NCBI GenBank assembly: GCA_051439425.1 | Contig: JBFRWD010000162.1 | Location: 1-35,918, forward strand | Direction: 5' to 3' | Length of the DNA stretch: 35,918 nt | Source: Synechococcus sp. | Lineage (GTDB): Bacteria; Cyanobacteriota; Cyanobacteriia; Thermostichales; PCC-7336 | Shown here: positions 14,334-31,340 of the stretch, one piece after another | Position numbering within the stretch: position 1 is the stretch's first letter | How the letters are laid out: the number at the start of each line of letters is the position of its first letter | Translations under genes and position numbers: made by a program | The notes under the pieces: model-generated | Databases searched by the model: none | What the model was told of the DNA's origin: nothing | What the model saw: only the letters and a program-made list of their open reading frames with translations

Positions 14334-14350
14334 CGAATTTCAGAGTTCAA

Positions 14351-14406: not shown

Positions 14407-14811
14407 TTACAGATCTTTGACATCCCGCAGCGAGCTGAGGAATAGCCCGATCCCGCCAACTCCTAAAACTACGATGGTCAACAGCTCGAAAGCGGACATT
14501 GGCTGCAGCCGAAAGCTAATGCTGGAAATCACCCCTAGTGTCAAGGCCAACAAAGAACCGAGGGAGAGCATCCAGCCAAACATATTTTTGCTGTTGTAGA
14601 AAATCATCCCGATGCCAAACAAGAACGGAATCAGCACCATACCACTGGTGACGCTGAGGTTGCCTACACGGTAGAGGCGATAGCCCAACGAAAAGTTATT
14701 CACCACTGTGATGGAGCTGAAAAACAGGTATCCTCCACCAATCATCATGGCCAACCCCATCAGGAATCGCATTATCCCGCCATTGGTACCACCTGCGCCC
14801 CGTCTAACCAT
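14407..14811 (-). CDS. Conserved hypothetical membrane protein
   Basis: GAGGT.GG N-terminus and about 4 TM helices; overlaps the GNAT stop. Confidence 0.8.
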   Translation of the reverse strand: MVRRGAGGTNGGIMRFLMGLAMMIGGGYLFFSSITVVNNFSLGYRLYRVGNLSVTSGMVLIPFLFGIGMIFYNSKNMFGWMLSLGSLLALTLGVISSISFRLQPMSAFELLTIVVLGVGGIGLFLSSLRDVKDL

Positions 14812-15286
14812 GCCGCTGTTCCTCTCGCAATCGATTTGGCTCGTAAACCATTAACAGATGGTCAATATCTGCTTCCACAAACACGTCTCCTTGTGTTGTA
14901 AAGCCCTGTTTGCGATAAAACTCTGTGGCCTGCACTTGGGCATGGAGTTTCATGCTCTCGAAGCCCCGATCGCGGGCGGTGCTCATCATGAAGGCTAAAA
15001 GCTGGTGCCCGTATCCTCGACCGCGGCACTGTTGCCGAATGGCCAGGCGTTCTAATTTGGCGTAGGGGTAAATGCAGCGAATCCGACCGGCTGCGATTGG
15101 TTCTCCCTGCTGTTCTCCCAGAATATGGATGGCTGCATAGTCTTGACCGTCGACTTCGATCGCATACGGACAATGTTGCTCGTGGATAAATACGATCGAC
15201 CGTACTGACATCACTTTCAGTAGGTCATCGAAGGTACTGGCAACTCGAAAGGTTAGGCCAGGTGGTTCTGTCTCCATCTCAGTCAC
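14804..15286 (-). CDS. GNAT N-acetyltransferase (ElaA/YjcF-like)
   Basis: VR..VFI.EQ, RGRGYG acetyl-CoA motif, LHAQ..A..FY...GF...G..F.EADI.H..M. Confidence 0.92.
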   Translation of the reverse strand: MTEMETEPPGLTFRVASTFDDLLKVMSVRSIVFIHEQHCPYAIEVDGQDYAAIHILGEQQGEPIAAGRIRCIYPYAKLERLAIRQQCRGRGYGHQLLAFMMSTARDRGFESMKLHAQVQATEFYRKQGFTTQGDVFVEADIDHLLMVYEPNRLREEQRHG

Positions 15287-15359
15287 ACATGCAAAACAGG
15301 CAACCCCATCAAATCAAACATCGTGCCGGGTGGCCGCACATGCAAGCGGAGACACTGCA

Positions 15360-16985
15360 CTAGATATCTGGGGAAAGTGTGATGAGATCGAGCGAAACGC
15401 GATCCACAGTTTCCCCCCCTCTTCGCAAGGAAAAGCTACCGAGAGGTTTGACCGCCTCAAGAGTACCTGCAGAGAGTCTGTCCAAGTCGCCAAATCTCTC
15501 AGTTGCTACGTATAGACCCGAACGTCCTCCCCAGAGACTGGGCTCGTCCCAGTAGGCAAATCCACGCGGATCGGGGCCAATGCAGATCACGGGGGCATCC
15601 GACAGAGGGGCGATGGCCATCGCCACATACCCACTTAAAAACCAGTCACCCGTTGCCACAAATTCAGCATCGTTCAGGGCCGCCTGCAAATCAGGTGAAT
15701 CTGCAATACCGCTCCGAATTTGCCGGATATCAAGCAATTCTGTGGAGGCGTCGTTCTCTACCGGTATTAATGGCAAGAAGGCTGTTGTGCTGGGAGATTG
15801 CAGCAGTCCTGCATGAATATGCATGCTTGCAACTAGCATCAGCAGGCTGCTGGTTAATCCGCTACTCCACAACCAAAACCACACGGCTCGGGGATAGCGT
15901 CGCCACCATTCCGCCGTCAACGAGCCCAGCAACAGCGTGACGCCCCAAAATCCGGGCATAGGCCAAGTGGGGAGGATTGAACGATAGCCGCCCATCCACG
16001 TAAACACGACAATGATGGGCAGCGAAACGCAAAGTAAAAACCGATATCGCAGAATGCGATCGCTATTATTTAGATCGTTTTTACCTAGATCGCCGTTCCC
16101 TCGAAAGCTAGGCTGCAGGGTGGCCCAACTGGCGCGGGAGATCGCCCACCACATCGTAAATCCAATAGTCGGGAATAGGTACGCGATACCTAACAGCCAG
16201 GTCACCAGCAAACTATCTAGCCTGTAGGGAGCATCCGAGGCTGCGCGGCCAAACTGAAACGCAAACGAAGCCCAGTCATGTTGGGCATTCCAAACCAGGA
16301 GGGGAGATATAGCGATCGCAAACAACACGAGCCCCAGTGCCACCCACTTTGACCACAGCGCTCGACGATGGCGGTGGCTGAGCAAGCAAAACAATACCAA
16401 GCCAAATCCCAACGCCGCCCCGTGATATTTGCCCAAACAGGCTAAGCCGACCAGTAGGGAGGCGATCGCCAATCGAGCTGTGGGCCGGTAGGCGTGATGG
16501 TTAGGAGATGACTCGCGCGGGAAAAATTCTTGGCTGGCAACATACAGGCACGCCGTCCAGCCCAGCATTAGCGGGCTATCGGGCAAGGTGAGGGTTCCGA
16601 ATCCGAGCTGAAAGATCGGGCTGCAGGTGGCGATCGCTAGGGTGAACCAACCCGCAGGTTTCCCAAAGAGGCGATCGCCCGTTCGATAGAGCAGCCACAG
16701 AGAGAGTGTGAAGAGTAGCAGCGAACCGAAGCGGATGCTAAACGGAGAGACATTGCCTAAGATCCAGGGGCCAACGCCGGTACTCAATGCCACCAGGGCA
16801 GGGTGGTCGAAATAGCTGAGGCTGGGATGCAAGGTGTAGGCATAATAGTATGCTTCGTCAAACCCAGCCGGTAAGTAGAGAGCCACAAGACCTCTCACCA
16901 GCAAACCGACCAACAGCGCAAGAATTGCCCATCGATGCTCGGCCCACACCCGATCTAGCATCGAATGTTGTGGATTAGCTGCCAC
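15360..16985 (-). CDS. ArnT/PMT-like glycosyltransferase family 39 (GT-C)
   Basis: DEAYYY...LSYFDHP, LPDSPL, LGKYHG, many TM helices. Confidence 0.9.
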   Translation of the reverse strand: MAANPQHSMLDRVWAEHRWAILALLVGLLVRGLVALYLPAGFDEAYYYAYTLHPSLSYFDHPALVALSTGVGPWILGNVSPFSIRFGSLLLFTLSLWLLYRTGDRLFGKPAGWFTLAIATCSPIFQLGFGTLTLPDSPLMLGWTACLYVASQEFFPRESSPNHHAYRPTARLAIASLLVGLACLGKYHGAALGFGLVLFCLLSHRHRRALWSKWVALGLVLFAIAISPLLVWNAQHDWASFAFQFGRAASDAPYRLDSLLVTWLLGIAYLFPTIGFTMWWAISRASWATLQPSFRGNGDLGKNDLNNSDRILRYRFLLCVSLPIIVVFTWMGGYRSILPTWPMPGFWGVTLLLGSLTAEWWRRYPRAVWFWLWSSGLTSSLLMLVASMHIHAGLLQSPSTTAFLPLIPVENDASTELLDIRQIRSGIADSPDLQAALNDAEFVATGDWFLSGYVAMAIAPLSDAPVICIGPDPRGFAYWDEPSLWGGRSGLYVATERFGDLDRLSAGTLEAVKPLGSFSLRRGGETVDRVSLDLITLSPDI

Positions 16986-18480
16986 CGCTCAAAATGGTCA
17001 ACGCGGCAAACGAACCCGCATTCCAGCAACTGTGCAGCAGCATGGGGGCCAGCAGATTTCGACTGCGACTATAAACAACCCCCAGCACGATGCCCAAAGT
17101 GGTGAGAGGGAGCAGATCGGAGACATTGAGGTGCACGATCGCAAAGAGGACGGCACTGATGGCGATCGCCCCCCACACCGGCATAACTCGGGTCAGGGAT
17201 GGTAGTAGAAATCCCCGAAATAAGGTTTCCTCAAATAGAGGTGCCATCACCGACACCACCAATAAGAAAATCGCCCCCGGTACCCAACCCTGGCTTTCTA
17301 AAATAATCGGCAGAATCGGGTTTCCTCCACCGGATTGAGGCAAGAGCTGTTGAGCGATAATCCCCGATAGCACGACCATTGGCAGAGCCGCAAAATAGCC
17401 TCCTAATCCCCACAGCGGCCACTGTCCTGCAATCCGTATGCGAAAGATTGGCTCTGTTTCTCCTTCATCAGGGATGGCTGCAGATTTGGATGGTTGGAAA
17501 TCGTCGGTTCCCTCCGAGCTGGATAACTCTGACCGCTGCAGGTAAGAGCGAGCGGTGGAAAACACCATGAATAATCCAATGGCGGCTCCAACAGCGTAGG
17601 TCACGGCTAGAGCGATCGCCTGCTGCACGTATCCCAAATCTCGCGGAGATGCCCCCAGCAGCGACACAAAGATACTGGGCACGAACAACCCCACCAGCAG
17701 ATAGGCAATGAACCAAATCGACATCACCACCACAGTGGTTTCGACATCCCACGGCACCGACCAGCGCTCCCCCAATGCAGGCCATTTGCTTAACACTATG
17801 CCAATGCCCCACGCCAGCAGCAGCACGAGGCCGACGACAACCCCCAACAGTGGTCCGCCTGCCAAAACGAGCAGGCGGTTGAGCGCTTGGGCTGCTATGT
17901 CTGCCTGAGCCTCCTCAAGTGCTTGCAGGGCATCCGATCGTTGCTGCTGTTCGTACAAACTCTGAAGGGCAAAGAACTCGAACCATCCGTCCAGCTCGGC
18001 CTGAATCAGTTCCTCTGCATTGGTAGGCACTTGCGATCGTCTGGCGGAAAATACACCATCCAATGCGTTGGCTATAGGCTGCAGGCTCTCTGTTTGCACG
18101 GCCTGCCAATACTCTTGCGCTTGCACATACTTCTCTTCTTTTGCCAACAGCAGACCGGCTCGCAATCTCAGTTCGTCCAGGTTGGTTTGCTGTCCAGGAG
18201 GCACGGCGTCAGAGGGAATGGCCGAGAGGCGGCTTACTGATGCGGAGATCGCTTCCTCGTAGCGCTGCGTTGCCACAGAAATTCCTTCGCTATCGAGCAG
18301 TGGGGCTGCGATGCTGGAATAGTCGGGATTATCCAGAATCGTGACGGCCTCCAGCGCCAAATTGGTTTGGGCCAGATCCAGTTTGGTTTGGGGGGGCGGC
18401 TGTGACCAACTGCCATACAGAAATATGGTCGCTAGCCCGAGAGCAATAATGGCCAGACAGACCGAAATGATTCGTCGCAT
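16975..18480 (-). CDS. CPBP (CAAX/Abi) intramembrane metalloprotease with N-terminal extension
   Basis: APLFEETLFRG, FAIVH, LLHSCWN motifs. Confidence 0.93.
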   Translation of the reverse strand: MRRIISVCLAIIALGLATIFLYGSWSQPPPQTKLDLAQTNLALEAVTILDNPDYSSIAAPLLDSEGISVATQRYEEAISASVSRLSAIPSDAVPPGQQTNLDELRLRAGLLLAKEEKYVQAQEYWQAVQTESLQPIANALDGVFSARRSQVPTNAEELIQAELDGWFEFFALQSLYEQQQRSDALQALEEAQADIAAQALNRLLVLAGGPLLGVVVGLVLLLAWGIGIVLSKWPALGERWSVPWDVETTVVVMSIWFIAYLLVGLFVPSIFVSLLGASPRDLGYVQQAIALAVTYAVGAAIGLFMVFSTARSYLQRSELSSSEGTDDFQPSKSAAIPDEGETEPIFRIRIAGQWPLWGLGGYFAALPMVVLSGIIAQQLLPQSGGGNPILPIILESQGWVPGAIFLLVVSVMAPLFEETLFRGFLLPSLTRVMPVWGAIAISAVLFAIVHLNVSDLLPLTTLGIVLGVVYSRSRNLLAPMLLHSCWNAGSFAALTILSGGS

Positions 18481-18616
18481 ACCGAGTCAAGAACTGCAGG
18501 AGATTATCACAACGATACTGGGAGGCCGGATGCTTTGGAGAGTCGATCTGTGGAGTGACGTACTGAATCCCCCCTGAATTGCTGGGATTACTCTTGATGC
18601 AACCTGAGTTCAATAG

Positions 18617-18653
18617 CCCTCATCCCCAACCCTTTTCCCGCGTTGGGAGAAGG
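18617..18653. repeat. REP-like small dispersed repeat hairpin
   Basis: CCCTCATCCCCAAC-CCTTTTCCC-GCGTT-GGGAGAAGG; resembles the CCCCTTCTCCC..GGGAGAAGGGG intergenic repeats common in cyanobacteria. Confidence 0.55.
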
Positions 18654-18729
18654 AATTGAGGATGAAAAAAGGGGAGTAATGGCGCTGGAATCGCTACCGG
18701 CTTGCTGCTTGAGCAGATCGAATGAGTGA

Positions 18730-19260
18730 TTAAAGGCGATCGTCGCGCGCGCAATACCGACAGACGTAACTGCGCTCCAGTTCGGCAGGAGGTGTGGGCC
18801 GATAACAACGCGGGCATGGATGCATGTTTTCGCTGGCTTGCACCTGCTTCATACGCAATGCCCATCGCTCGAAGGCTTCTCGTGGTGTTTCCGCTCTAGG
18901 GATAGACGGCTGCTGTGGATTTAGTCCCTGGCGTTTGGGGCGATCGCTTTGGTCTTGCAAGGCTTTCCATTGGTGCCAGGTGCCGGGGCGAAATTTGAGG
19001 CCGGAAATCTTGCGATCGAGGTGAGGATTGATTTTTTTGATAATCAGGCTGCGCTGAAAGGCCAGATTCTGCGCCCATGTGGGCGAAGATGTCGCAACGG
19101 TGAGGATGTCATTGTGCAAGCGTGTGGGTTTTGAGTTTGCTGCAACCACATCTCCCACGACCTCCTTCCACACTCGTTGAATCGCTTCGAGTTGTCGATA
19201 GTCTTTCCAGGAGGGCTGCGATTTCACAGCCTGCATTAAGTCATTTATGGAATGGAGCAC
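18730..19260 (-). CDS. DUF721 / DciA-family protein with C-terminal Zn knuckle
   Basis: W.EVVG..VA.NS.P..L....L.VATSSPTWAQNL.FQR, plus CPRC...ELER...CRYC. Confidence 0.88.
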   Translation of the reverse strand: MLHSINDLMQAVKSQPSWKDYRQLEAIQRVWKEVVGDVVAANSKPTRLHNDILTVATSSPTWAQNLAFQRSLIIKKINPHLDRKISGLKFRPGTWHQWKALQDQSDRPKRQGLNPQQPSIPRAETPREAFERWALRMKQVQASENMHPCPRCYRPTPPAELERSYVCRYCARDDRL

Positions 19261-19481
19261 GTATTGCTGTCACTGACCTTGACCGAGTTTCTCCAGGATA
19301 CCGAATGATTTTTGGAATGCGCTTACATCTCGCCTCGTAAGATCTGTAGCAAGCTTTGCGAGCTTCTACTGAATGGCGTGAGTTAGCAAAACTACTGCCA
19401 CGGATTGGTACGCAGCGTTTAAGTGTCAATTGTATGCGGCAGTGCATATCGGCAGTGAGAGTCGTGCTACTCTTTCGAGTG

Positions 19482-19639
19482 TTTAGGTGTCTGGATCGTC
19501 ATGCATGTATTGTTTTAGGCTGCATGCGATGACTCTAACGGGTTGCGCTCAGCCGGCCTGTGGGCCATCTCAAAACGGCCATCTTGCCAAGCAAGCTAAG
19601 ACCAGACGCCGCGAATCCCTCAGTTTTTGGATACCTAAA
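19482..19639 (+). promoter_or_regulatory. Structured rbp 5'UTR sequestering the translation initiation region
   Basis: TTTAGGTGTCTGGA(19482-95) pairs with TTTGGATACCTAAA(19626-39); inner hairpin 19498-19533; extended -10 TGcTACTCT at 19465-19473. Confidence 0.65.
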
Positions 19640-19640
19640 G

Positions 19641-19886
19641 ATGACTATTTATGTTGGCAATTTGTCGTTTCGGGCAACTGAAGCCGATGTATCTGACGTA
19701 TTTGCCGAATACGGCACTGTCAAACAAGTGAAACTGCCCACCGATCGCGAAACGGGCCGAGTGCGCGGGTTTGCCTTTGTAGAAATGTCGTCCGATGAGG
19801 AAGAAAGTAAGGCGATTGAAGAACTCGATGGTGCTGAATGGCTGGGCCGTGAAATGCGTGTCAATAAAGCGAGACCTCGCACCTAA
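19641..19886 (+). CDS. rbp: RRM RNA-binding protein (Rbp family, no Gly-rich tail)
   Basis: MTIYVGNLSF (RNP2), RGFAFVEM (RNP1), LDGAEWLGR.MRVNKA; 81 aa from ATG 19641. Confidence 0.95.
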   Translation: MTIYVGNLSFRATEADVSDVFAEYGTVKQVKLPTDRETGRVRGFAFVEMSSDEEESKAIEELDGAEWLGREMRVNKARPRT

Positions 19887-19904
19887 CCGATTGTCGGACT
19901 GACG

Positions 19905-19933
19905 GTACTAGCAATGTTACTTCTTGCTAGTAT
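19905..19933 (+). terminator. Hairpin after rbp
   Basis: GTACTAGCAA / TTGCTAGTAT inverted repeat. Confidence 0.55.
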
Positions 19934-20009
19934 TCGTTCACACTTGGTCTGTTGCCACTGGCCCGCGCATGTCACAGTAGCTGTGGTAAGTCGCTGAAAG
20001 GTCTAGATA

Positions 20010-20357
20010 GTGGGAAATACGCCGCAGAAGCAGCAACCTCAATCTTCCCCAGCCGCAAATCCCGAAGACTACACCAACGGGATGCGAATTGCTGGAGGAA
20101 TGATTTGGGGAACGGTGCTGTCGTTAACTGTGGGGTCAGGGATGGTGCTGCTGCCCCAAGTGCCGCGCCCTTGGTTATGGGGGGTGCCGGTGCTATGGGT
20201 GAGTCTATCTGCTTTGGGGATCTGGCTGCAGTGGTCTGTGGCTCGTGGGAAATGTCCCAAATGCGGTCACGAACAGTCAGTAACTCGGCTGGGTAAGCGC
20301 TGTCCGCAATGTCGTACGTTCTTGCAGGCGAGCAATCGTAAGATTGTGCGTATCTAG
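20010..20357 (+). CDS. Small membrane protein with a C-terminal Zn ribbon
   Basis: Two hydrophobic segments followed by CPKC-x12-CPQC. Confidence 0.7.
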   Translation: MGNTPQKQQPQSSPAANPEDYTNGMRIAGGMIWGTVLSLTVGSGMVLLPQVPRPWLWGVPVLWVSLSALGIWLQWSVARGKCPKCGHEQSVTRLGKRCPQCRTFLQASNRKIVRI

Positions 20358-20375
20358 CTAGGAACAATCCACGCA

Positions 20376-21389
20376 CTACAGCTGAAAGACGGTCAGTAAT
20401 GCAGCGTGGTCGGAATCTGGAAACTTGAGATTCTGGCGATCCGGATTGGCTGAGTCATGCAGATCTTGATTGAAGATTTGGCAGGAAGACAGTTGTTGAT
20501 ACAGCGATCGCGATGCCAGCAGATGATCGATTGTTGCCCGTCGACCTGCGTAGAGGTGGGTGAATCGCCGCTCGTCAGCCACCAATTGCTCGCACGCGGC
20601 TAGCTCCTGACTGACCAGTTGTGGATTTCGCACCCGAGAAAACCGTCCCATGATGGTTCGCACCGGCAGCTCGTTAATTTCGGCATTGAAGTCCCCGCAG
20701 ACAACAATTGCAGCCTTGCTGTCCCGCTCGAAGATGCGATCGACGACCATACGGATCTCCAATGCTTGACCCGCACGCTTGAGATCCGACAACAACTCGC
20801 TTTCTGCCCTGCCGGCTAAACTTCGCCACATTCCGTCTTCCGATCGCTGCCCTTCAATGTCACTCGGCAGTGGCGATTTGAGATGCACGTTAATCACGTG
20901 CAGCGACGACCGGTTCGGCAGTTCTAGCTCTACATGTAAACAGGGTCGATGCCACGCAATTTCTTCGGTTTTCCTAGTCGCTGAGGTTCTGGGTAGGGCC
21001 GTGTTTTGCCGAAACGGCATCTGCACTAGATCATTGTAGTACTGCTGCGCCTGCTTAACGGGAAATCGACTCAGGGTGACGACATTGCGATAGTCCAGAG
21101 CCTGTTCGGGGCCACCCTCGGGATCGTGAGTGCCGATCGCCTGATAACTCCTATATTGTGTATCCTCCAGCAATTCCTTCAGTGCCAGAAACCGACGGTG
21201 GCCACAAGATTCCTCCACCTGGCCGTGAATTTCCTGCAGGCAAAGCACGTCAGCATTGAGCTGGGTTAACTGCGATCGCAATGTTGGTATGCGCTGAGAT
21301 AAAGGAGGATTGGTGGAGTCGGCCTCAAATTCTAGATTTTCAACATTGAACGTTGCAACTCTCAGCTCCACCGTTGCCTCTCCCGTCAC
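20376..21389 (-). CDS. Endonuclease/exonuclease/phosphatase (EEP) family protein
   Basis: ATFNVENL, ADVLCLQEI, HLKS, CGDFN, IDHLL, SDHA motifs; AGGAGAGG RBS. Confidence 0.93.
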   Translation of the reverse strand: MTGEATVELRVATFNVENLEFEADSTNPPLSQRIPTLRSQLTQLNADVLCLQEIHGQVEESCGHRRFLALKELLEDTQYRSYQAIGTHDPEGGPEQALDYRNVVTLSRFPVKQAQQYYNDLVQMPFRQNTALPRTSATRKTEEIAWHRPCLHVELELPNRSSLHVINVHLKSPLPSDIEGQRSEDGMWRSLAGRAESELLSDLKRAGQALEIRMVVDRIFERDSKAAIVVCGDFNAEINELPVRTIMGRFSRVRNPQLVSQELAACEQLVADERRFTHLYAGRRATIDHLLASRSLYQQLSSCQIFNQDLHDSANPDRQNLKFPDSDHAALLTVFQL

Positions 21390-21866
21390 GCAACTTTGCC
21401 TCTCCTTAGAGTAGGCCGATAGACATTAAACATTTTGAGAAGGAGCTGGCCGGAGGGTCGTTGGCGCAATGCTATGACCGTCTCCTGCCGTTCAGTGTAG
21501 ATCGCAGGAAGAAATGGGTCGGGAGCCCCCAGTTTTTTTCTTTTGAGCTGCAGGACACCGTATGTCATTCTTGTTTGAACTCTAACCCGTAGCAGCTGCA
21601 CGGCCCAACGAGCCAGTGCGCATCCAGTGCTAGGGGGAATGACAGTATCCCCACCCCTTTAGAGCTTCGTTCGTTGCGGTCGCTCACTCCTCTTGCGGCT
21701 ATCTAGAACTATTGTCGCCAGTTGGCAGGATGCGAGTGGAAAGAATGCGGTGCTCAAATGCTAACCATGTCCCAAGCAGTCTTGGCCGCTGCGATCGCAT
21801 GGTTTACCAGATCCACCGAGCGAGAGCTTGTGCAAACTACCGATTGCCACAAGGAATCTCTATCCT

Positions 21867-21910
21867 AAGAATAGATCTAAGTCTATTCTTGTACGACAAC
21901 AAATAGATCT
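21867..21910. promoter_or_regulatory. LysR (NdhR/CmpR-type) operator ATAG-N8-CTAT
   Basis: AAGAATAGA-TCTAAG-TCTATTCTT perfect 9-bp inverted repeat (21867-21890); AATAGATCT repeated 32 bp downstream. Confidence 0.65.
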
Positions 21911-22035
21911 CTTGCGCATGTTCTCAAAATCAAGTCATAGTTAGTGTCAGATGCAACCTTAGACAAACCCGATCGCCCTCTAAAATCGGTGCATTCTTCC
22001 CCCTTTTTTCCCTATTGCTAGCGAGGTACCTGCCC

Positions 22036-24234
22036 GTGGTCGCGACATCAACTTCAACTCCCGCGTTCTGCGAGGGCATTCAGTACTTTGCCGAATCCGT
22101 CTCCGGTTTCGATACCTACGGCCAAACGCCAGCGATTGCTGAGGGGGCTAAAGCGGTTACCGATCCCGGCAATCCGACAGCAGCCTATCAAAGCATGTTG
22201 ATGTCCGATGCGTTGCGGTATCTCATCCTGCAGATGACCGCAAGTAAGGCGTCCGGCCACCCCGGTGGATTTGCTAGCCAAGCGGAAGTCTATGCTGCGC
22301 TGGTGATGCAGGGATATAAGAATATCGTGACGGAGGTGGGGCATCACGCTCCCGGTTTCTACGCGGCCATGTTTATCGATCGCTCGCTAGAAACCATGGG
22401 GATTGCGACCGTTCAAGAGTTACGCGATCGCTTCCGGGAAAAGCACGGCTTGTTGGGCCACCTGTCAGGCTATATTCCTGGTATCCTGGCCCCCGCCGGC
22501 CCCCTCGGCCAAGGTCAACACTTTGCAATGGCTGCAGCGCTGCTCAACCGAGATACTCTCTATCCATGCACTATTGGTGACGGCGGGTTAGGAGAGCCCT
22601 ACGTCATGAGCGCGATCTCCCACTTCCACACCGCATTCCCAGACGTGACCAACTTCCTGCCCGTCTTGGTTTGGAATGGTTACAGCCAAGAGCACCACAG
22701 CATGGTGTCCACCCAGTCTAATGACGCCATGTTGAACTACTGGTACGGCAATGGTGTGGATGAAGTCGTGTTGATCGATGCCAAAGACTACGACGATCGC
22801 GACCAAGCCGGGGCTTTTGTTGACAGCACGGCGTTTAGCTTCGAGCAGCGCTTGGCCTTCAATCAAGCTGTCATGCAAGCCGTCGAGCAGGCAGCCGCTT
22901 CAGCGATGGGTGGTAAGCTAACCGTCTTGATTATCAAGCAACTGAAAGGGGCAGGGGTTCACGCTCGTGGTTCAAAATCCCATAACCTCTACGGATTCCA
23001 CACGTTAGATAACGAGGATATTGTCAGCGCCCTCAGAGACCTATCCTTAACCCCCGCTGCTTGGGACTTGGTTCGCACCAATGCCGTTCGAGCGGCTGGC
23101 GGTCCTGCTGCTACAGTGGCCACCACCGAATCTGTTCGTGCTCTACCCAAGCTTGGCGCTTTGCCCCTATCCGAGATTGCGATCGGGGAGTCTGCGGTTG
23201 CGACAACATCCATGGGGCAATTGGTCGCTGCTGTCGGTCAAGCTGACCCTGCCTTTCTGGTCACCAATGCGGATGGAAATGCTGCTTCCGGCATTGGCAA
23301 CATCAACAAAGCGCTAAAGATTATCCACCCCACCTCTGATAGCCTGTACGACCAAGGTCCGCAGGGGCAAGTGTACGAGCCTTTGAGTGAAGATGCCTGC
23401 GCGGGCATGGCGGCGGCCCTCTGTTTAATGGGGGGGCGCAGTCTCTGGTGCTCTTACGAATCTTTTGCGATCAACGGTCTCCCCATCTGGCAAACCGTGA
23501 CTCAAGCGATGGCAGAATTGCGTCGCCCAACCCCCTCTACCATTACCCTGTTCACGGCAGGTGCCCTAGAGCAGGGGCGCAATGGCTGGACGCACCAGCG
23601 TCCGGAGGTCGAAAACTACTTTGCCGGCATGATGCGCAACGGCAACATTTTCCCCCTCTTTCCTCTCGATTCCAACAGTATCCAAGTGTCGTACGACTGG
23701 GCGTTGACCACCCAGAATAAAGGGGTTGTCATCACTGCAAGTAAGTCTCCATTGCCTATACGTACTACTTTCGAGCAATCTCGTAAGGGATTGGAAACCG
23801 GCGGAATTGTCTTGCACGAATCTACCGGTTCTAAAACCATCGTGCTGGCTGTTATTGGAGATATGACCCTGATCCCTGCGTTTGCAGCGGCAGAAATTTT
23901 GGAGGCACAAGGTTATGGAGTGCGAATTGTCTCTGTCATCAGCCCTCGCCGCCTCTATCGGCCTACCGACGTCGCCTGGGATACCTGTTCGCAGCCTGAT
24001 GGTGGCTTTGTTGACGACGCAACCTTTGCGGCAATGTTTGATGGCGATGCTCTGATTGGAATTACCGGTGGAGCCAGTGGAATGCTGGAGCCGATTATGC
24101 TGCGCAGTTCTTGCAAGCGGGACACGTTTGCCTGGAAGCGTGGCGAGACGACTGCCTCGCCAGCAATGCTGATGGAATTTAACGGTTTGGAAGCCAAGGC
24201 GATCGCCGCTCGGGCCAGCCAATTACTAGCCTAG
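22036..24234 (+). CDS. Phosphoketolase / transketolase-like TPP enzyme (cyanobacterial Sll0529-like)
   Basis: SKASGHPGG, GPLGQG, TPP motif GDGGLGE...WNG, LSEDAC, SYESF, NGWTHQRP; GTG 22036 with GAGG RBS. Confidence 0.88.
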   Translation: MVATSTSTPAFCEGIQYFAESVSGFDTYGQTPAIAEGAKAVTDPGNPTAAYQSMLMSDALRYLILQMTASKASGHPGGFASQAEVYAALVMQGYKNIVTEVGHHAPGFYAAMFIDRSLETMGIATVQELRDRFREKHGLLGHLSGYIPGILAPAGPLGQGQHFAMAAALLNRDTLYPCTIGDGGLGEPYVMSAISHFHTAFPDVTNFLPVLVWNGYSQEHHSMVSTQSNDAMLNYWYGNGVDEVVLIDAKDYDDRDQAGAFVDSTAFSFEQRLAFNQAVMQAVEQAAASAMGGKLTVLIIKQLKGAGVHARGSKSHNLYGFHTLDNEDIVSALRDLSLTPAAWDLVRTNAVRAAGGPAATVATTESVRALPKLGALPLSEIAIGESAVATTSMGQLVAAVGQADPAFLVTNADGNAASGIGNINKALKIIHPTSDSLYDQGPQGQVYEPLSEDACAGMAAALCLMGGRSLWCSYESFAINGLPIWQTVTQAMAELRRPTPSTITLFTAGALEQGRNGWTHQRPEVENYFAGMMRNGNIFPLFPLDSNSIQVSYDWALTTQNKGVVITASKSPLPIRTTFEQSRKGLETGGIVLHESTGSKTIVLAVIGDMTLIPAFAAAEILEAQGYGVRIVSVISPRRLYRPTDVAWDTCSQPDGGFVDDATFAAMFDGDALIGITGGASGMLEPIMLRSSCKRDTFAWKRGETTASPAMLMEFNGLEAKAIAARASQLLA

Positions 24235-24394
24235 TCCTCGTGCCGCTTGCTCTTGTCTCCCCAGTCACCCAGGCTCAAGAGTCGTGGGGGCTGGGGGTCG
24301 TGTGCAATGGGTGAGCGGAACGATAGAGTTCGAGTCCTCCTACAACCAGGAGCTCGGTATCGTTGCGCTCTATTCGCAGTGAGGGGACGCATAA

Positions 24395-26551
24395 CTAAGC
24401 GATACCGAATCCGACTGCTGTTTTCGATAGGTCGCGACTGAACTCACTGGCAGAGCGGGGTTTCGAGAAGAAGTATCCTTGCATCAAATTACATCCCAGT
24501 TCTTGCAAGTGTTCGTATTGTTGGAGCGTTTCTACTCCTTCGGCGATCGCATCAATATTCATCGCTTGCGCCAGTTTCAGCACCACTTCAACAATCTGAG
24601 AGTTGATCGGGTCTGTCAGAAGTTTAGATACAAAACTCTTATCGATTTTCAACGCATCGATGGGAAGGTTCTGGAGATAACTCAAGGAAGAGTAGCCTGT
24701 TCCAAAATCATCGATATAAATCTTGATTCCAGCATTCCTGAGTTGTTGAAGCTTACCGGATGCCATTTCGCGATCTTTTAGAAAAAGATTTTCGGTGATT
24801 TCTAGGCGGATTTTGGATGTATCGATCTGATATTTGTCGAAGATGTCCAGAATCTTGCTGTCAAAGGATGGCTGTGCAATATATTTAGGGCTTATATTTA
24901 CGTTGATATAAAATGAATCATCTACCAATCCTGCTTCAGTCCACTCTTTGATTTGTAAACATGACTGTTGAAGAACGAAGTCTGAAATCGGAACAATTAA
25001 TCCAGCGTCTTCCGCTACATCAATAAACCGTCCTGGTCCGCGGATACCATCCTGAGGAGAATTCCAACGCACTAAAGCTTCGCATCCAATAAAACTCCTG
25101 CATCCACAGGCGTAAATAGGCTGATAGTGCAGTACAAATTCCTTATTCAAAAGAGCGTGACGCAGCTCTGTTTCTAATTTCATGCGAGTGGAGATTTTCG
25201 CATGCATGTTGCTATCAAAGATTGCATATTGCAGTTCAGGCTTAGCTTTAGCCTCATACATAGCAATATCAGCGTCTCTCAGAATACTGTCGGCATCGCC
25301 ATATTGCCCTTGGCAAAAAACCACACCAATACTAGTTGACGTGAAGATTTCATGTCCATCCACTTGAATTGGCTTCGCAATGGATTCTGAAATCCGATCG
25401 ACAACATACAAGAGTTCTTCGATATGATTGGTATCCTTTAAAAGGACGATAAATTCATCGCCGCCGAGCCGAAAGACAGTATCTGACAGGCGAATGGCAA
25501 GTTGTATCCGCTGTGCCACGATGACTAGCAGACGATCTCCAACATTATGGCCTAAACTATCATTGATTTGTTTGAATCTATCTAAATCTAGAAACAGTAA
25601 CCCAAACTTGTTTGTTTGATGGGAATTCCTGCTGGATAGAAGCTTCTCTAAAATATGATTGAGGTTTTTACGATTGGGTAGACCCGTGAGTTCGTCATGA
25701 AATACAGCTTTGAGAAGCTGTGAATTCACTTTTTTAATTTTATCAATGTCTGTTATCGAACCTGCCATTCGATAAGCACTTTTCTGCTTGTTGCGAATAG
25801 CCATCCCGCGACATAAAACCCAGCGATACTCGCGATCAGAACATAAGATCCTATGCTCGTTTTCAAGAAAAGGCGTTTGTCCGTTCAGATGTAGAACAAT
25901 TTGCTGCTTGAGGCGATCGATGTCGTCGTGATGGACGCGATCGAACCATTCGTCGAGCACGCTAGCAATATGATTCTCCTCATACCCCAAAATGCTTTTC
26001 CAGCGGGGAGAGTAGTAAATCTCGTTGGAAATTAAACTCCAATCCCAGATACCGTCGTTGGTTCCCCTCAGGACTAGTTCGTAGCGTTCCTGAGTTTCAT
26101 TCAGCTCTTTGGCGATGGTCTCGAAGGATGACTGGGTCGGTGTGAGGGTTTTCCGATACTGCTCGACAATATCTAGAGACGTTGTCTCATTTGCCCGACT
26201 CTGCTCGGGAGCGACTTCTGTGTAAACAGCTGAGGAGTTAGGGCCAAACTTAATTGCATCGCCAGATTGCAGAATGCAGGCTTTTATCTTGCTACCGTTT
26301 ACCTCGACGCCATTTCGGCTAGCTGATGCGCCCGCCACGCCATCCTCAATCCGGTAGACAAATCCAGACGCAGAATCGGCATCCTCGACTAAAGAGAGAG
26401 TGGCATGATGTTTTGAAACAAATTTGTCTGTCAGTCGAATTGAATTGTCAAACTTTCTTCCAATGGAATAAGTGGTATCACGCAGAAGATACGTTCTGCT
26501 GATGCCACCATCAACCACAGTCAATTTAGAGAATGAGCCCGGTTGTCTCAT
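24395..26551 (-). CDS. FHA-PAS-GGDEF-EAL diguanylate cyclase/phosphodiesterase
   Basis: FHA (IGR..N, VSKHHA, SRNG), PAS (DGIWDW..YSPRW), GGDEF with RLSD I-site, EALVRW, DDFGTGYSSL. Confidence 0.96.
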   Translation of the reverse strand: MRQPGSFSKLTVVDGGISRTYLLRDTTYSIGRKFDNSIRLTDKFVSKHHATLSLVEDADSASGFVYRIEDGVAGASASRNGVEVNGSKIKACILQSGDAIKFGPNSSAVYTEVAPEQSRANETTSLDIVEQYRKTLTPTQSSFETIAKELNETQERYELVLRGTNDGIWDWSLISNEIYYSPRWKSILGYEENHIASVLDEWFDRVHHDDIDRLKQQIVLHLNGQTPFLENEHRILCSDREYRWVLCRGMAIRNKQKSAYRMAGSITDIDKIKKVNSQLLKAVFHDELTGLPNRKNLNHILEKLLSSRNSHQTNKFGLLFLDLDRFKQINDSLGHNVGDRLLVIVAQRIQLAIRLSDTVFRLGGDEFIVLLKDTNHIEELLYVVDRISESIAKPIQVDGHEIFTSTSIGVVFCQGQYGDADSILRDADIAMYEAKAKPELQYAIFDSNMHAKISTRMKLETELRHALLNKEFVLHYQPIYACGCRSFIGCEALVRWNSPQDGIRGPGRFIDVAEDAGLIVPISDFVLQQSCLQIKEWTEAGLVDDSFYINVNISPKYIAQPSFDSKILDIFDKYQIDTSKIRLEITENLFLKDREMASGKLQQLRNAGIKIYIDDFGTGYSSLSYLQNLPIDALKIDKSFVSKLLTDPINSQIVEVVLKLAQAMNIDAIAEGVETLQQYEHLQELGCNLMQGYFFSKPRSASEFSRDLSKTAVGFGIA

Positions 26552-26907
26552 CTACCACTTTCCCTGGCAAGATAGTGCCTGGCAATGCCGCTCTCGCTCG
26601 ATCGCGTCAACAATTGCTTGGTGTGCCGCCACTCGTAAACAAATATTTAATATTGTACCCTGCGGCATTCTCGTTGTATACAAAAAATACAATCTATTTT
26701 GAATAGTTCTTGAAGGTTGCGCTTGCTTAAGATTTTTTGGCCTGCGTTACTCTTCGAAACAGTCTAATTTTGAATCTATGGATTCTGAAGGATTTAAGGG
26801 AATAAAGTCATAAAGACATAGGTATTTTTAGCTTTCAGATGGTGTCATTTAAAGATAGGAAAATTTGATTTTAGCTTGGTAATATATCAATCTGGTTTTC
26901 CATTTGT

Positions 26908-28440
26908 CTAATTTCTGCTTAATATAAAACCAAATGTATATTTGGGCTCAGAAGCAACGAGACTCGTAATGCTTTCTGATGAAAGAGAACCTGAGGTGAT
27001 GTAGATATCTCCCTCTGATTGGGCAAACCCTGTCAGATTGATATCTCCATTTAACTCAATGTTTCCTCTGCTTTGTAGCCCTGCTCTCAAAAGAGGTATG
27101 TCTGCATTCACTTGAATGACTCCATCACTGATAATCGTCAAATCCTCATGAGATCGTATTGCACTGTTGCTTAGATATACGCCAGTGGAGTCTCCCTCTC
27201 CAGCCAGCGTGCTGACACCTCGAAAATCTACTGCCCCCGAAACAAAAATTCCATCAGATGCAATCGCTGATGAATTATTAAAAACGATATTATTACCTTC
27301 AAGAATAATATCGCCATTCTCCGTGATTATATGAGTGTTTTCTAAGCTGCTATTCGAATTTATTCGTATCGAACCAGCATTCACAATCATTTTTGTGTTG
27401 CTTAAATCAACTCCTTCCGGAAAGACAATATCTTGAGCGGAAGGGACAACAACAAAAGAACCTGGTTCAACAGCTAATTGATTTTCAAAGCTACGGCTAT
27501 CAGTTGCGGAATTTAGTTGTGTTGCAGTGACGTATTCACCTTCGGTTAAGGAAACTTTGGGTAAGCCGTTATTTTCGATTTCAGTCTCTCTATAAGACCC
27601 CGTTTCATTAGCACCTTCAATTTCAATCTCTATCTCAGAACTCGTAGCATCGATTTCAAGAATTTCGGCTCCCATAACAGTCGTTCTGAGTGAAGAGGTG
27701 CTTGTTATATCTATAGATTGACTATTAATTATATTCGGAGGACACATCACAACGCCTCCTCCACGACAAACACTATAGCCTTCGGAGGCAGTAATACCGG
27801 GCTCTCCATTGACGGTAGATAACGTCACTTGTGGATTGATCGAAAAACCGTAGTTTCCATGCGCAATAACATCGTCGTATGGCTGTGTCGTACCACCGGT
27901 TAAATCAACGCCAGCGCCCAAGTCAATAATGCCATTGGCAAGGAGTTCAATCGGGGGAGAAGATGAAGAGTTGGGCGACAATCGAATAGTGGCCTCAGCT
28001 ACATATTCAGCGTTGGTAATCGGATCCCCGGCGATTGCGTTAATGGTGATTGTTTCCGGAGTCCAACGGTTAACCGTCACACAGGGGGTTCCGGTGTCAG
28101 AACTGTACGGACAGTTCGATATGTCGCCAAAAAACGACAGGTTATTGGCTTCGGCAACCAACGCATCGATTTCGGCATTATCTAAGAAGCCGGAGGCATT
28201 GCTTTGGAGATAGGCGATCGCCGTATCGACGCCTGCTTCGGCCCGATAGCGGGTCGTTAAATTGGTTTCGACGTTCTTAGAAATGGTGATGTTCGTGAGG
28301 CTCAAAAAGCCCGCCGCCGACCCTAACATCAAAATGACGCTCATCATCAGTAAAGAGACCACCAAGATGTGACCCCGAGTTACTAGAGCCAGCTTGAGGC
28401 GAGGGCTGTATTGAAAGGTAGAATTGCTAACTTGTTTCAC
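26908..28440 (-). CDS. PilX/ComZ-like large minor pilin with predicted beta-solenoid
   Basis: RG|HILVVSLLMM class III leader lacking Glu5, RYRAEAGVDTAIAYL PilX-N motif, C-terminal (N/S/E)GxIxL/V repeats. Confidence 0.78.
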   Translation of the reverse strand: MKQVSNSTFQYSPRLKLALVTRGHILVVSLLMMSVILMLGSAAGFLSLTNITISKNVETNLTTRYRAEAGVDTAIAYLQSNASGFLDNAEIDALVAEANNLSFFGDISNCPYSSDTGTPCVTVNRWTPETITINAIAGDPITNAEYVAEATIRLSPNSSSSPPIELLANGIIDLGAGVDLTGGTTQPYDDVIAHGNYGFSINPQVTLSTVNGEPGITASEGYSVCRGGGVVMCPPNIINSQSIDITSTSSLRTTVMGAEILEIDATSSEIEIEIEGANETGSYRETEIENNGLPKVSLTEGEYVTATQLNSATDSRSFENQLAVEPGSFVVVPSAQDIVFPEGVDLSNTKMIVNAGSIRINSNSSLENTHIITENGDIILEGNNIVFNNSSAIASDGIFVSGAVDFRGVSTLAGEGDSTGVYLSNSAIRSHEDLTIISDGVIQVNADIPLLRAGLQSRGNIELNGDINLTGFAQSEGDIYITSGSLSSESITSLVASEPKYTFGFILSRN

Positions 28441-28502
28441 AAAAAATGGTTAAGGCTAAGGAGTATGACCGATGGCTCGGTGTATATTAATTTACTTACG
28501 TA

Positions 28503-28511
28503 AGTATTCCC
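28503..28511 (-). promoter_or_regulatory. SigJ/SigF-type extended -10 box GGGAATACT
   Basis: Exact GGGAATACT on the minus strand about 63 nt upstream of the pilX-like GTG; overlaps palindrome TACTTACGTAAGTA (28493-28506). Confidence 0.6.
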
Positions 28512-28520
28512 TTTCGGCGA

Positions 28521-29924
28521 TTAAATTGTGCAAGTTTCGCTAGCAGATCCCAGATACACGCCCTGTAGGTTGTTTTGAGTAGATCCTGGAAGTAGCAAGA
28601 TGCGAGCAAAGCCAACGATTGTGTAATTCAAGTCTTGTGCAGCTCCTTCGGCTTTATTCCAGACAGGAGCCAGTACTACTTGATTTTCATATTGGGATAA
28701 CGCTACATTCCCCGGCGTTCTGTTGCCAGGCAGCCCCTCGACTGTACTTCCCACTTGCAAGGTGTGGCGGGCCGGCTCGTCAATGTCTGCTACGGTCGGG
28801 TCGGTATAGGTTGTCCTGGATAGCTCGGGAAAGTTCAAAGAATTCAACAACGCTGGTGTGCTGTTATCTCCGTTCCAAGTCACCCAGCCAAAGTTGCCGG
28901 GGCCAGGGGTGGCATTGCCAGCATGATTGGCAACGATCGCTTGGTTTCTTGCGTTGGGGATGCTATCCACAGGCCAAGCTAGCGGAAGCTGATTGCAGGG
29001 TTGGCTGTTGACTAAGCTAATTTCAAGTACCTTTTCCTGGCGACGAAAGGCATCGTCGTAGGGCTGCACTGCGGGCACACCGATATCCGACCATTGGCTG
29101 ATTGGGGTGCCGTCTTGCAGGACGCCGCGGGGGAGTTCTGGGGAATTTGGATAGATCTCAGAATCTGTGAAATTGGGATCTGCAAGAGTCGCTCGCAAAC
29201 GCATGTAAATCCCAACACTTGCCACGCTGCTGATATCGGCAGGTAATTCAGAGGTATAAACTGGCAGGCCAGATTGCGTACGATTCAGTTTGAAGAAGGC
29301 GTGAAAAGATTCCAACCCTTCGATCGCCACGTCATTCCCACTGTTTGCCCCACTGAGTCGGCAACTAGAGTTACTTCGCACAGGCGCTGAACAACTGAGA
29401 GATTGTTGGAGGCGAGTCAGGTTGCCGTTGGTTGAGCCGTAGCTGACGTATTCCAGAGCGTACGTATCCTGAGTGGAATTCTCATCAATTCCGATCACCC
29501 TCACGAGCCCTAGCACATCGGAGTCAGCATCACTGCCTGGTACGTACACGACGGTGGGCAGTGGAGATTCGGCGATGCCAGAAATATCTTCAATGCCGAG
29601 CAGTCCGCTATTAGATGCTGCCGTAAAGTCAATCGTGAAGGGCCAGCGAACGATATTCGTGAAATGCGCTGCCTGCTGGTCATTGGGAGAACTCCCCCCA
29701 AACGAAGTCACGTTACCCCCTCGGTAGCCAGCACCTTGGAGGTCGCCTTGTAATATTGCTGCGGCTAGTTCGGAATTTTGGAATAGCGATGTGCCCTGCT
29801 GATTGACTCGATTGGTTCTCACCGAGGCAGAAAAAATGCGGCCGATCAGTAGGATCAATACTCCGGAAATGACAGAGCCGATCAACAGTTCCACAAATGT
29901 CATGCCGCGATCACTTCGTCTCAT
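28521..29924 (-). CDS. PilW-like minor pilin with an extra C-terminal TadG-like domain
   Basis: RG|MTFVELLIG prepilin site, DLQGAGY PilW motif; C-terminal PGNFGWVTW...APVW...YTIVGFA. Confidence 0.82.
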   Translation of the reverse strand: MRRSDRGMTFVELLIGSVISGVLILLIGRIFSASVRTNRVNQQGTSLFQNSELAAAILQGDLQGAGYRGGNVTSFGGSSPNDQQAAHFTNIVRWPFTIDFTAASNSGLLGIEDISGIAESPLPTVVYVPGSDADSDVLGLVRVIGIDENSTQDTYALEYVSYGSTNGNLTRLQQSLSCSAPVRSNSSCRLSGANSGNDVAIEGLESFHAFFKLNRTQSGLPVYTSELPADISSVASVGIYMRLRATLADPNFTDSEIYPNSPELPRGVLQDGTPISQWSDIGVPAVQPYDDAFRRQEKVLEISLVNSQPCNQLPLAWPVDSIPNARNQAIVANHAGNATPGPGNFGWVTWNGDNSTPALLNSLNFPELSRTTYTDPTVADIDEPARHTLQVGSTVEGLPGNRTPGNVALSQYENQVVLAPVWNKAEGAAQDLNYTIVGFARILLLPGSTQNNLQGVYLGSASETCTI

Positions 29925-30334
29925 TGGGAAATAGCCTTGATTGTCGTGATTTCTAGGGTCTCGGCTGTTGACTCAGCAGTGACGGTGACATTGATTTGAC
30001 AGGCTGGGTTCGTATCTGTGCAGTCTGTACTGGTCGAGCATGACAGCTCTGTCCCCATAAATTCGCACCCCAATACCTCAACGCTGCGAGAAATACCGGC
30101 TTCCGATATCACCGGAACATCAGTGGGTAAGGGCAACGACCGTTGCCGTTCCATTTCGGCTTGGGCTATCGCCGTCAAACTGCCACTGTCCTGGGCATCT
30201 CTGGTTGTATTCAGAGACGCATTCATGGAGGCTACAGATGCCGAAACCCCAACAGCAAGAATGACTGTTGCTGCCATGACTTCGACCAAAGTGAAGCCCT
30301 GGATTCCACGTATGCGATCGCGATTGAAAGGCAC
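29921..30334 (-). CDS. PilV-like minor pilin
   Basis: QG|FTLVEVMAATVILAVG, AQAEMERQR, Cys-containing C-terminus; ATGA overlap with the pilW-like gene. Confidence 0.85.
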   Translation of the reverse strand: MPFNRDRIRGIQGFTLVEVMAATVILAVGVSASVASMNASLNTTRDAQDSGSLTAIAQAEMERQRSLPLPTDVPVISEAGISRSVEVLGCEFMGTELSCSTSTDCTDTNPACQINVTVTAESTAETLEITTIKAISQ

Positions 30335-30532
30335 AAAGGTATAGATAATGACATATACGATGCCTATGTTGCCCTAGAAAATACCGATCGATTACGTTTT
30401 CGAATGAAATGCTACAGAACTATACCGATTTGAGTTATGCGTCGATTTACTTATATGTTTGAAATCCTGATGGGCTTGCTAGCTCTCTTGCCAACTAATA
30501 AGAGTCAGAGGTTTTCCGAACGGGCGCGATCG

Positions 30533-31135
30533 TTAGTCTAAGAATTGCATGCTGATTCCTCCTCCCAGAGAAATCTCAATGTCAATATTTCGCGCGCCGC
30601 TAGGTATTTCATCGAACCTGACTTCGAGGGTGTTTCCCCCCGTCCCTTCAAAATTGTTGCAACTAGCCGTCAAGCCGTTTACCTTCCAAGCGATCCCCTG
30701 CTCGCTGACAAACGTCCCTTGAATGTCGATCGCGTCGCGCAATCCAGGGGGGTCGGGCAGCAATACTGGGGCGAGTGCCAGATCTCCATTGTCGATATCG
30801 CAGCCGGCATTGGTGGGGCTTTTGACAACGGTTTGAAATGATTGCTGGTCCGAGTCCCAGAAAAAGACCACAACCCGATTGCGCTTGATCGCCTCAAATC
30901 GCGATCGCTGTAAACCCGCTTGTACTTTGTGGGCAAAACCGTTGATTTCCAATCGGTTTGCCAGTGGTCTCCATCCCAACATGGCTAGCCCCGAGACCGC
31001 TGCCAGCAATGTCATTGCCATGACAAGCTCTAGCATGGTGAATCCCGCATGACGAGATCCTCGCTGCTGCTGCCACTGTGCGATTCGGTGGGGCAAGATG
31101 TGCGCTGGTCGGCTTTGGGGATTCATAAACATCAT
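30533..31135 (-). CDS. FimT/FimU (GspH-like) minor pilin
   Basis: AG|FTMLELVMAM prepilin site, LQRSRFEAIKRNR.V FimT motif, C-terminal I.ISLGG. Confidence 0.85.
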   Translation of the reverse strand: MMFMNPQSRPAHILPHRIAQWQQQRGSRHAGFTMLELVMAMTLLAAVSGLAMLGWRPLANRLEINGFAHKVQAGLQRSRFEAIKRNRVVVFFWDSDQQSFQTVVKSPTNAGCDIDNGDLALAPVLLPDPPGLRDAIDIQGTFVSEQGIAWKVNGLTASCNNFEGTGGNTLEVRFDEIPSGARNIDIEISLGGGISMQFLD

Positions 31136-31340
31136 GAAACATCATGCGATTGGGTAGTTTTACGTAACTATCCTGTTTCTCATGATGCCTATTGCACCCT
31201 AAAATCCTTCACCTTCGACAGATTGATTGGCTGGCCGCCAATGACGAGCAGTGTTTGCAGCCAAAAGCACGGTCTGTCGGTGGGGGAAAGAGGACCGTCC
31301 GGATCGATCTGGCTGAAAAGTCGCAACGGAAAAGGCGCGA

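Follow-up and report, generated by a model that had tools for sequence, protein, structure and literature searches.

A complete minor-pilin set, probably of the Com lineage, next to a GGDEF-EAL gene in a cyanobacterium of the Synechococcus sp. PCC 7336 group

The contig JBFRWD010000162.1 of Synechococcus sp. (assembly GCA_051439425.1), analyzed here over a stretch of 35,918 nucleotides that we call the window, carries on its minus strand five co-oriented open reading frames (ORFs) in the order FimT-like, PilV-like, PilW-like, PilX-like and FHA-PAS-GGDEF-EAL. We think it probable that the first four, inherited vertically, make up a complete core set of minor pilins (FimT, PilV, PilW and PilX) of the Com lineage in a marine member of the Synechococcus sp. 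PCC 7336 group of cyanobacteria, and that the enzyme gene downstream of them is a neighbor. A preliminary description of this DNA had placed five co-oriented genes here, had read four of them as a FimT-PilV-PilW-PilX set lacking a major pilin, PilY1 and an assembly ATPase, and had proposed that they form a swappable pilus tip kit co-regulated with a dedicated switch for cyclic di-GMP (c-di-GMP). Its account of the gene content agrees with ours: the five genes are borne out by the ORFs and family assignments and the four-pilin reading by families and folds, and no major pilin, PilY1/PilC or T2SSE ATPase was found among the 30 nonshadow window ORFs of at least 120 amino acids (aa).

The four pilin-family genes lie together in the FimT-PilV-PilW-PilX order, as judged from ORFs, family matches and fold matches, and class III signal peptides, with Gly at position −1 and Glu at position 5 (Glu5), can be read from the sequences of FimT, PilV and PilW. 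We scanned the proteins against Pfam and NCBIfam, with cutoffs of 21.2 bits for N_methyl and 21 bits for GspH (PF12019). The fimT-like gene (GspH/FimT family; 30533 to 31135, 200 aa, cleavage site G31/FTMLE, the slash marking the cut) scored 22.7 bits with N_methyl and 21.0 bits with GspH, exactly at the cutoff, and gave sub-threshold NCBIfam matches to PRK10506, GspH and ComGD. The pilV-like gene (GspI/PilV family; 29921 to 30334, 137 aa, G13/FTLVE) scored 26.8 bits with N_methyl and, above its cutoff, 25.3 bits with TIGR02532, with sub-threshold matches to TIGR02523 PilV, ComGE and GspI; four Cys residues of PilV are invariant in a four-sequence alignment. The pilW-like gene (GspJ/PilW family; 28521 to 29924, 467 aa, G7/MTFVE) scored 20.6 bits with N_methyl, slightly under the cutoff. 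The pilX-like tip pilin gene (26908 to 28440, 510 aa) has a GTG start, and this upstream start is backed by conservation with L002, one of three related loci (L001 to L003) described below. PilX (RG23/HILVVS) lacks Glu5, having Val at mature position 5, and found no family match in the direct Pfam and NCBIfam scan. The intergenic gaps are 198 nucleotides (nt) between fimT and pilV, a 4-nt overlap of the pilV stop with the pilW start, 80 nt between pilW and pilX, and 356 nt between pilX and the enzyme gene. At the fimT start codon, a 10-nt unit present in 2.5 copies (31123 to 31146) creates several in-frame ATGs. The 31-residue leader of FimT is unusually long, and it is conserved in L001.

A structural model of PilX was built on 28 sequences (predicted local distance difference test [pLDDT], 76.9). 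It has a helix at residues 13 to 81, β-solenoid strands at residues 329 to 487 and a closing strand at residues 501 to 509, so that PilX is modeled as a pilin fold interrupted by a β-solenoid ahead of the last strand, as expected of a cyanobacterial PilX. The solenoid part is encoded at 26980 to 27456, where the GC content of third codon positions (GC3) is 0.17 to 0.40 per 30-codon block. The best match of the model in the PDB was ComZ (6qvi; E = 2.9e-4, probability 0.99, template modeling [TM] score 0.23), with a PL6 lyase and ice-binding proteins ranking next, and the PilX profile weakly matched tapirin and antifreeze proteins. Among 1.84 billion representatives, 44 PilX relatives were found at an E value of 1e-3 or below; PilX_N matched 17 of 32 scanned PilX homologues, 3 of these above the gathering score. 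PilX also has an acidic EIEIEIE stretch (about residues 261 to 285; 27586 to 27660), in a loop modeled with low confidence; the relative P0127, 82% identical, has a longer version, which shows that the length differs even among close relatives.

The model of PilW is less confident (mean pLDDT, 61.7; below 50 at residues 28 to 131). Its best PDB match was TTHA1219 (5g23; E = 2e-4, probability 1.00, TMt 0.32), followed by EpsJ, GspJ and XcpW. The parallel with Thermus thermophilus, whose gene order is pilA1-pilA2-pilA3-comZ, had been drawn in the preliminary description and is upheld by these top fold matches, ComZ for PilX and TTHA1219 for PilW (5g23/5g24 and 6qvi), ComZ being itself a pilin with a large β-solenoid. 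The Thermus proteins differ in coming from another phylum, with sequence identities of 12 to 15% and TM scores of 0.15 to 0.33, and we know of no c-di-GMP gene linked to the Thermus competence pilin locus.

PilW also carries a separate C-terminal domain of about 160 residues (about residues 305 to 467; 28521 to 29012) with the motif GNFGWVTW. This domain is unclassified, with no Pfam or NCBIfam model matching at an E value of 1 or below, and its alignment has eleven invariant columns. The PDB search with the domain profile returned solely TTHA1219 at an E value of 0.39 and hence no solved relative; in an Atlas search the best score was 0.87, under the 0.9 level, which makes the matches leads at most. 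We then searched GTDB genomes with the motif GNFGW[VL][TS]W and a second pattern, which retrieved 211 stretches, 168 of them confirmed by tblastn. In the 42 of 80 loci whose contexts we inspected, the hosts are proteins of up to more than 4,000 aa, in which the domain is C-terminal, N-terminal or internal; it was also seen in two TadE-like pseudopilins (L023 and L080), in an Oscillatoriaceae pilin with DUF4842 (L075) and in two small secreted proteins (L035 and L036). The domain occurs mainly in Chloroflexota, Verrucomicrobiota and Acidobacteriota, and it often begins with C..YPIAL. Since a prepilin regular expression matched around only 7 of the 80 loci, two of which (L032 and L067) look spurious, the domain is not generally pilus linked. 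In PilW it is probably displayed at the pilus tip. This unclassified domain, common to giant surface proteins of other phyla, is what is new in the present analysis.

We looked for relatives of the set by a word search of 5.8 billion proteins and by a genome scan queried with the PilW alignment. The word search found five PilW relatives, with identities of 81, 63, 63, 63 and 46%, and the scan found three full-length cyanobacterial loci: L001, from the metagenome-assembled genome (MAG) Cyanobacteria bacterium J06642_12, and L002 (on JBFRWN010000021.1) and L003, which have a single Synechococcus sp. MAG as their source. The named PilX relatives come from Cyanobacteria bacterium J06597_1, the Synechococcus MAG of L002 and L003, and Synechococcus sp. 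PCC 7336. All full-length relatives of the pilins are cyanobacterial (Synechococcus PCC 7336 group). For FimT, the orthologues are 70% (L001), 48% (L002) and 33% (L003) identical, and those of L002 and L003 score 26.3 and 29.9 bits with GspH.

The gene order bioF-M23-fimT-pilV-pilW-pilX is common to the window and L001, the closest genome. Against L001 the pilins are 70 to 81% identical, bioF is 77% and M23 is 82% identical, and the ratio of nonsynonymous to synonymous substitution rates (dN/dS) is 0.09 to 0.19 for all of the pilin genes, giving no sign of diversifying selection; the synonymous rate (dS) is saturated against L002. Identities to L002 are 47 to 64% for the pilins, 64 to 66% for Exo, Rce1 and PMT2, 76% for DciA and 85% for the phosphoketolase-like protein. 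The conserved flank and the low dN/dS argue for vertical inheritance and not for a swapped-in cassette, and the history suggested by these sequence comparisons is ordinary vertical descent of surface proteins that evolve somewhat fast. Cyanobacterial relatives, the L001 flank and identities like those of the flanking genes make the pilins largely ordinary orthologues of a described cyanobacterial set, an outcome that the preliminary description had named as telling against its own proposal. In L001, pilX matches lie in two frames (residues 1 to 72 and 78 to 510; 11494 to 12974) and the deposited protein has 403 aa, which reflects either a frameshift or an assembly error.

Recent work sorts cyanobacterial pilins into FimT, PilV, PilW and PilX families that form "Com" and "EPS" sets, proposes the PilX solenoid as a substitute for PilY1 and maps the HpsA profile to PilXEPS only (PMC13759059). 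The window PilX had no match to the HpsA model NF038301 at an E value of 1 or below, while a 656-aa protein of L003 (15841 to 17811), serving as a positive control in the same library, matched it with an E value of 5.4e-18. The 510 residues of PilX fall within the 482 to 611 of Synechocystis PilXCom, versus 799 for PilXEPS (Table 1 of PMC13759059). We therefore assigned the set to the Com lineage, although lineage does not fix function according to the same paper. Com-lineage examples are Synechocystis PilA5-8 with PilX1-3, Thermosynechococcus tll2333-35 and the PilA3/PilW/RntA/RntB set of S. elongatus (PMC13759059; PMC12288463). Like these, the window set has the four families in one locus, a Glu5-less PilX with a solenoid ahead of the last strand, no PilY1, a Com-fitting size and no HpsA signature. 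It differs from the Synechocystis set, whose PilX genes lie elsewhere, in that all four genes are contiguous, and in that PilW has 467 aa instead of 300 to 360, owing to the extra C-terminal domain, of which the sections of PMC13759059 consulted make no mention. It also differs from the Com-lineage examples in having a GGDEF-EAL gene after pilX. Looking up PCC 7336 and two accessions in the supplement of PMC13759059 gave chance numeric matches only. The claim that bulky pilin domains stand in for PilY1 finds support here in the modeled PilX β-solenoid and the extra PilW domain, and has already been published for cyanobacteria (PMC13759059). Also in print are the ideas that four pilins form a priming set, that a solenoid-bearing PilX replaces PilY1 and that one machine can use alternative sets.

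The gene after pilX (24395 to 26551) encodes a 718-aa protein with four Pfam domains far above their cutoffs: FHA (residues 28 to 103), PAS_3 (178 to 265), GGDEF (284 to 437) and EAL (462 to 698). All of the catalytic motifs that we checked are present (GGDEF, EALVR, EITE, DDFGTGYS, KID, EGVE and QGY), the I-site (RLSD-x5-GGDEF; RxxD) is intact, and the FHA domain has its GR...SxxH motif. From its motifs the protein is apparently an active enzyme of c-di-GMP turnover with a phosphothreonine-binding FHA input, and the FHA domain suggests input from Ser/Thr phosphorylation. FimX, a c-di-GMP receptor acting on PilB, has degenerate catalytic motifs and is unlike the window protein in this and in the latter's FHA input. 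The window protein resembles FimX-type regulators (PMC5595344; PMC8389850) in its multidomain GGDEF-EAL build and in a possible bearing on type IV pilus function. Orthologues with the same architecture are 88, 79, 77 and 71% identical, the next matches being at about 46%, and FHA-PAS-GGDEF-EAL proteins are common among the cyanobacteria in the enzyme match list.

That the pilins are a swappable tip kit conferring a new surface specificity, co-regulated with this enzyme as a dedicated c-di-GMP switch, strikes us as unlikely. The genes are adjacent and co-oriented, and the AT-rich spacer between them (26552 to 26907, 356 nt, GC content 0.32 to 0.42) has no terminator-like site on the minus strand, all of which favors a link. 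The spacer is nevertheless long, and nothing in it stands out: it has two promoter-like sites, no more than in shuffles, and its RNA fold has a z-score of 0.16, indicating no unusual structure. Promoter and terminator scans gave 8 sites each, versus 10.3 and 6.5 in shuffles, and we give them no weight. No c-di-GMP riboswitch or other Rfam family matched between 23500 and 32500 at an E value of 1 or below, and CRP-like sites (consensus TGTGA-N6-TCACA) numbered 16 versus 16.5 expected, with none in the spacers. The enzyme gene probably has its own promoter.

The arrangement in relatives bears on the same question. What follows pilX in L002 is an inverted block of about 7.7 kb (PMT2-Rce1-DciA-Exo-phosphoketolase-like), beyond which, on the opposite strand and about 8 kb off, lies a fragment 63% identical to enzyme residues 654 to 710. 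The inversion takes in six genes (PMT2, Rce1-like, DciA, Exo_endo_phos, phosphoketolase-like and GGDEF-EAL; 15360 to 26551 in the window versus 13147 to 21404 in L002). In both the window and L002 the enzyme gene is convergent with the phosphoketolase-like gene, which makes these two the stable pair, the pilin set being found at one end of the block or the other. The protein matches of the enzyme did not include a GGDEF-EAL orthologue from L002, where the gene may be incomplete. The phosphoketolase-like gene (22015 to 24234, plus strand) encodes 739 aa with weak XFP and transketolase matches far below the phosphoketolase cutoffs, and is 85% identical in L002. The L001 contig ends 287 bp past pilX, and those 287 bp have no clear homology to the window spacer. 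In the genome scan the enzyme query matched 2 of the 80 loci, L002 and L003, most of the loci being noncyanobacterial. In L003, two GGDEF-EAL genes without FHA, 33 to 38% identical to the window enzyme, lie 1.6 to 4 kb upstream of a Com-type set on the other strand.

On the other side, orthologues of PilX and of the enzyme seem to lie on one and the same contig in each of three more assemblies, as we infer from equal contig sizes (9,324, 11,911 and 106,208 bp), and the 9,324-bp contig also holds a PilW orthologue. To hold the L002 arrangement, a contig would have to span about 11.9 kb between the starts of pilX and the enzyme gene, and more if pilW is included, so the 9,324- and 11,911-bp contigs most likely have the arrangement of the window. 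On these contigs PilX diverges faster than the enzyme (58 versus 88%, 54 versus 79% and 50 versus 71% identity), and the one related MAG has at least three sets (one in L002 and two in L003, of the Com type and the HpsA/HpsC type). Moreover, c-di-GMP switches minor-pilin sets in Synechocystis (bioRxiv 10.64898/2026.03.27.713163; bioRxiv 10.1101/2020.12.15.422378). We found no direct support for a swappable kit, the hints being this faster divergence of PilX and local AT-richness, and against it stand pilins as conserved as the flanking genes relative to L001, purifying selection and the lack of mobile-element signs. Nor is the dedicated, co-regulated switch well supported, given the 356-nt gap, the lack of an Rfam riboswitch and an adjacency that is broken by the L002 inversion, yet apparently kept in other close relatives. 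Coupling of the enzyme to the pilin set is possible, a dedicated link between them is doubtful, and the enzyme gene may be a neighbor that feeds the known c-di-GMP control of minor-pilin choice.

The base composition of the locus raises a different alternative, namely that an AT-richer relative donated, by recombination, the 3′ two-thirds of pilX together with the GGDEF-EAL gene, so that the part of PilX exposed at the tip was exchanged. The AT-richer block noted in the preliminary description is real (about 24550 to 27990, GC content 0.37 to 0.47), but it is limited to the GGDEF-EAL gene and PilX residues 151 to 510 and leaves out fimT, pilV and pilW. GC3 is 0.44 for the GGDEF-EAL gene and 0.41 for pilX, the two lowest values of 29 genes, the next lowest being 0.479; PilW (0.53), PilV (0.52) and FimT (0.59) lie outside the block. 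Within pilX the composition breaks near codon 150, from a GC3 of 0.60 (residues 1 to 150) to 0.33 (residues 151 to 510), before the 0.44 of the enzyme gene. The HIP1 sequence GCGATCGC occurs 36 times in the window versus 0.94 expected, an abundance typical of cyanobacteria. The earlier statement that HIP1 sites persist in the block stands for the range 24395 to 31200, which has four (at 24543, 28214, 30314 and 30901), and not for its AT-rich part, which has a single site at its extreme edge and none inside. The stretch from 24551 to 28213 is free of HIP1, where about 3 sites would be expected at the window density of about 1 per kb. The low GC3 of pilX recurs in L001 (0.41) and not in L002 (0.555).

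We regard such an import as improbable. PilX aligns colinearly with its L002 homologue from end to end, with no gaps in L002, and the 171-nt enzyme fragment in L002 is also AT rich (GC content 0.44), so that the low GC may be a property of the gene. Apart from short repeats of low identity and trivial tandem repeats, no repeats, tRNA, integrase or mobile-element genes were found at the edges of the block, and no donor was identified.

A type II secretion pseudopilus tip (GspH-I-J-K) in place of type IV minor pilins is very unlikely. The genes do follow the gspH-I-J-K order, sub-threshold matches to GspH, GspI, XpsI and GspJ-type models occur, PilX homologues weakly match GspK and the PilW fold matches include EpsJ, GspJ and XcpW, but all of these weak family matches are far under the curated cutoffs, the best structural matches are Thermus competence-pilus proteins, no GspD, E, F or G was found in the window ORFs scanned, and genetics has shown that homologous cyanobacterial sets serve pili in Synechocystis and Thermosynechococcus (PMC13759059).

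Several points weigh against the reading that we prefer, a vertically inherited Com-lineage set with the enzyme gene as a neighbor. The same orientation of pilX and the enzyme gene and the absence of a terminator-like site from the spacer keep a functional link alive; the two genes share their AT-rich composition; and the paralogous set of L003 also has its two GGDEF-EAL genes 1.6 to 4 kb upstream. The composition break in pilX, present in L001 and not in L002, is left unexplained by a simple vertical history. The Com assignment uses an absent profile match and protein size and not the structural clustering of PMC13759059. Finally, the PilW model is poor over residues 28 to 202, and TM scores are low for the fold matches of both PilX and PilW.

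Family knowledge, set beside the observed gene set, signal peptides, folds and intact enzyme motifs, suggests how such a set might work. The host prepilin peptidase would cleave the pilins, after which PilV and PilW would pair. The Glu5-less PilX would cap the PilV/PilW pair with its ComZ-like β-solenoid, doing the job that PilY1 does in proteobacteria, and FimT would join the tip complex to the major pilin. The one type IV pilus machine of the host could then assemble a filament primed by the tip complex, for DNA uptake or motility, and a neighboring enzyme that changes c-di-GMP could bias which pilin set is used.

Links between minor pilins and c-di-GMP are known from other systems. The fimU-pilVWXY1Y2E locus of Pseudomonas aeruginosa has the same four roles in the same order, and its PilX also lacks Glu5 (PMC13759059); it differs from the window set in that its PilY1 is a distinct adhesin and its PilX is small. 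That set signals to c-di-GMP via SadC, which is encoded elsewhere (PMC4324313; PMC5979040). In Synechocystis, minor-pilin sets are under c-di-GMP control via Cph2 and CdgR-SyCRP1/2, the receptor CdgR acting through SyCRP1/2, and high c-di-GMP represses pilA5-6 and pilX1 and favors pilA9-12 (bioRxiv 10.64898/2026.03.27.713163; bioRxiv 10.1101/2020.12.15.422378). This control acts in trans, with the enzymes encoded elsewhere, whereas the window enzyme gene is in cis and has no standout CRP-like site. In the literature that we searched, no cyanobacterial minor-pilin set was described as having a GGDEF-EAL gene in cis.

With this locus, the newly defined minor-pilin sets of cyanobacteria gain a member that is complete and contiguous and comes from a marine lineage that has been little studied. 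The extra domain of PilW, widespread and without a family, might define the binding target of the pilus tip, and the recurring but breakable FHA-PAS-GGDEF-EAL neighborhood could be a handle on c-di-GMP choice among tip complexes. A more far-reaching idea, to which we give a small chance, is that in the PCC 7336 group a Com-lineage tip set recruited both a tip-displayed GNFGW binding module on PilW and a cis-encoded, FHA-gated GGDEF-EAL switch, through which Ser/Thr-kinase signals would alter c-di-GMP locally and so select the priming set. If this were so, local c-di-GMP would decide whether this set or an alternative one, as in L003, primes the shared machine.

L003 (JBFRWN010000060.1, 2417 to 21448) is a pilin-rich region with eight prepilin-like ORFs by regular expression. 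Its Com-type FimT-PilV-PilW-PilX set, at 8923 to 12854, is directly followed by GspH-like, XpsI-like, HpsC-like and HpsA-like genes (EPS-type; 13351 to 17811) and then by further pilin-like genes. Within the window, ORFs of similar sizes at 14.4 to 19.3 kb had been considered as a second pilin set and proved to be GNAT, PMT_2, Rce1-like and DciA genes. At the other end of the window, an ORF on the minus strand (3 to 1379) that runs off the sequence has 10 matches to RTX calcium-binding nonapeptide repeats (HemolysinCabind, E = 6.7e-53).

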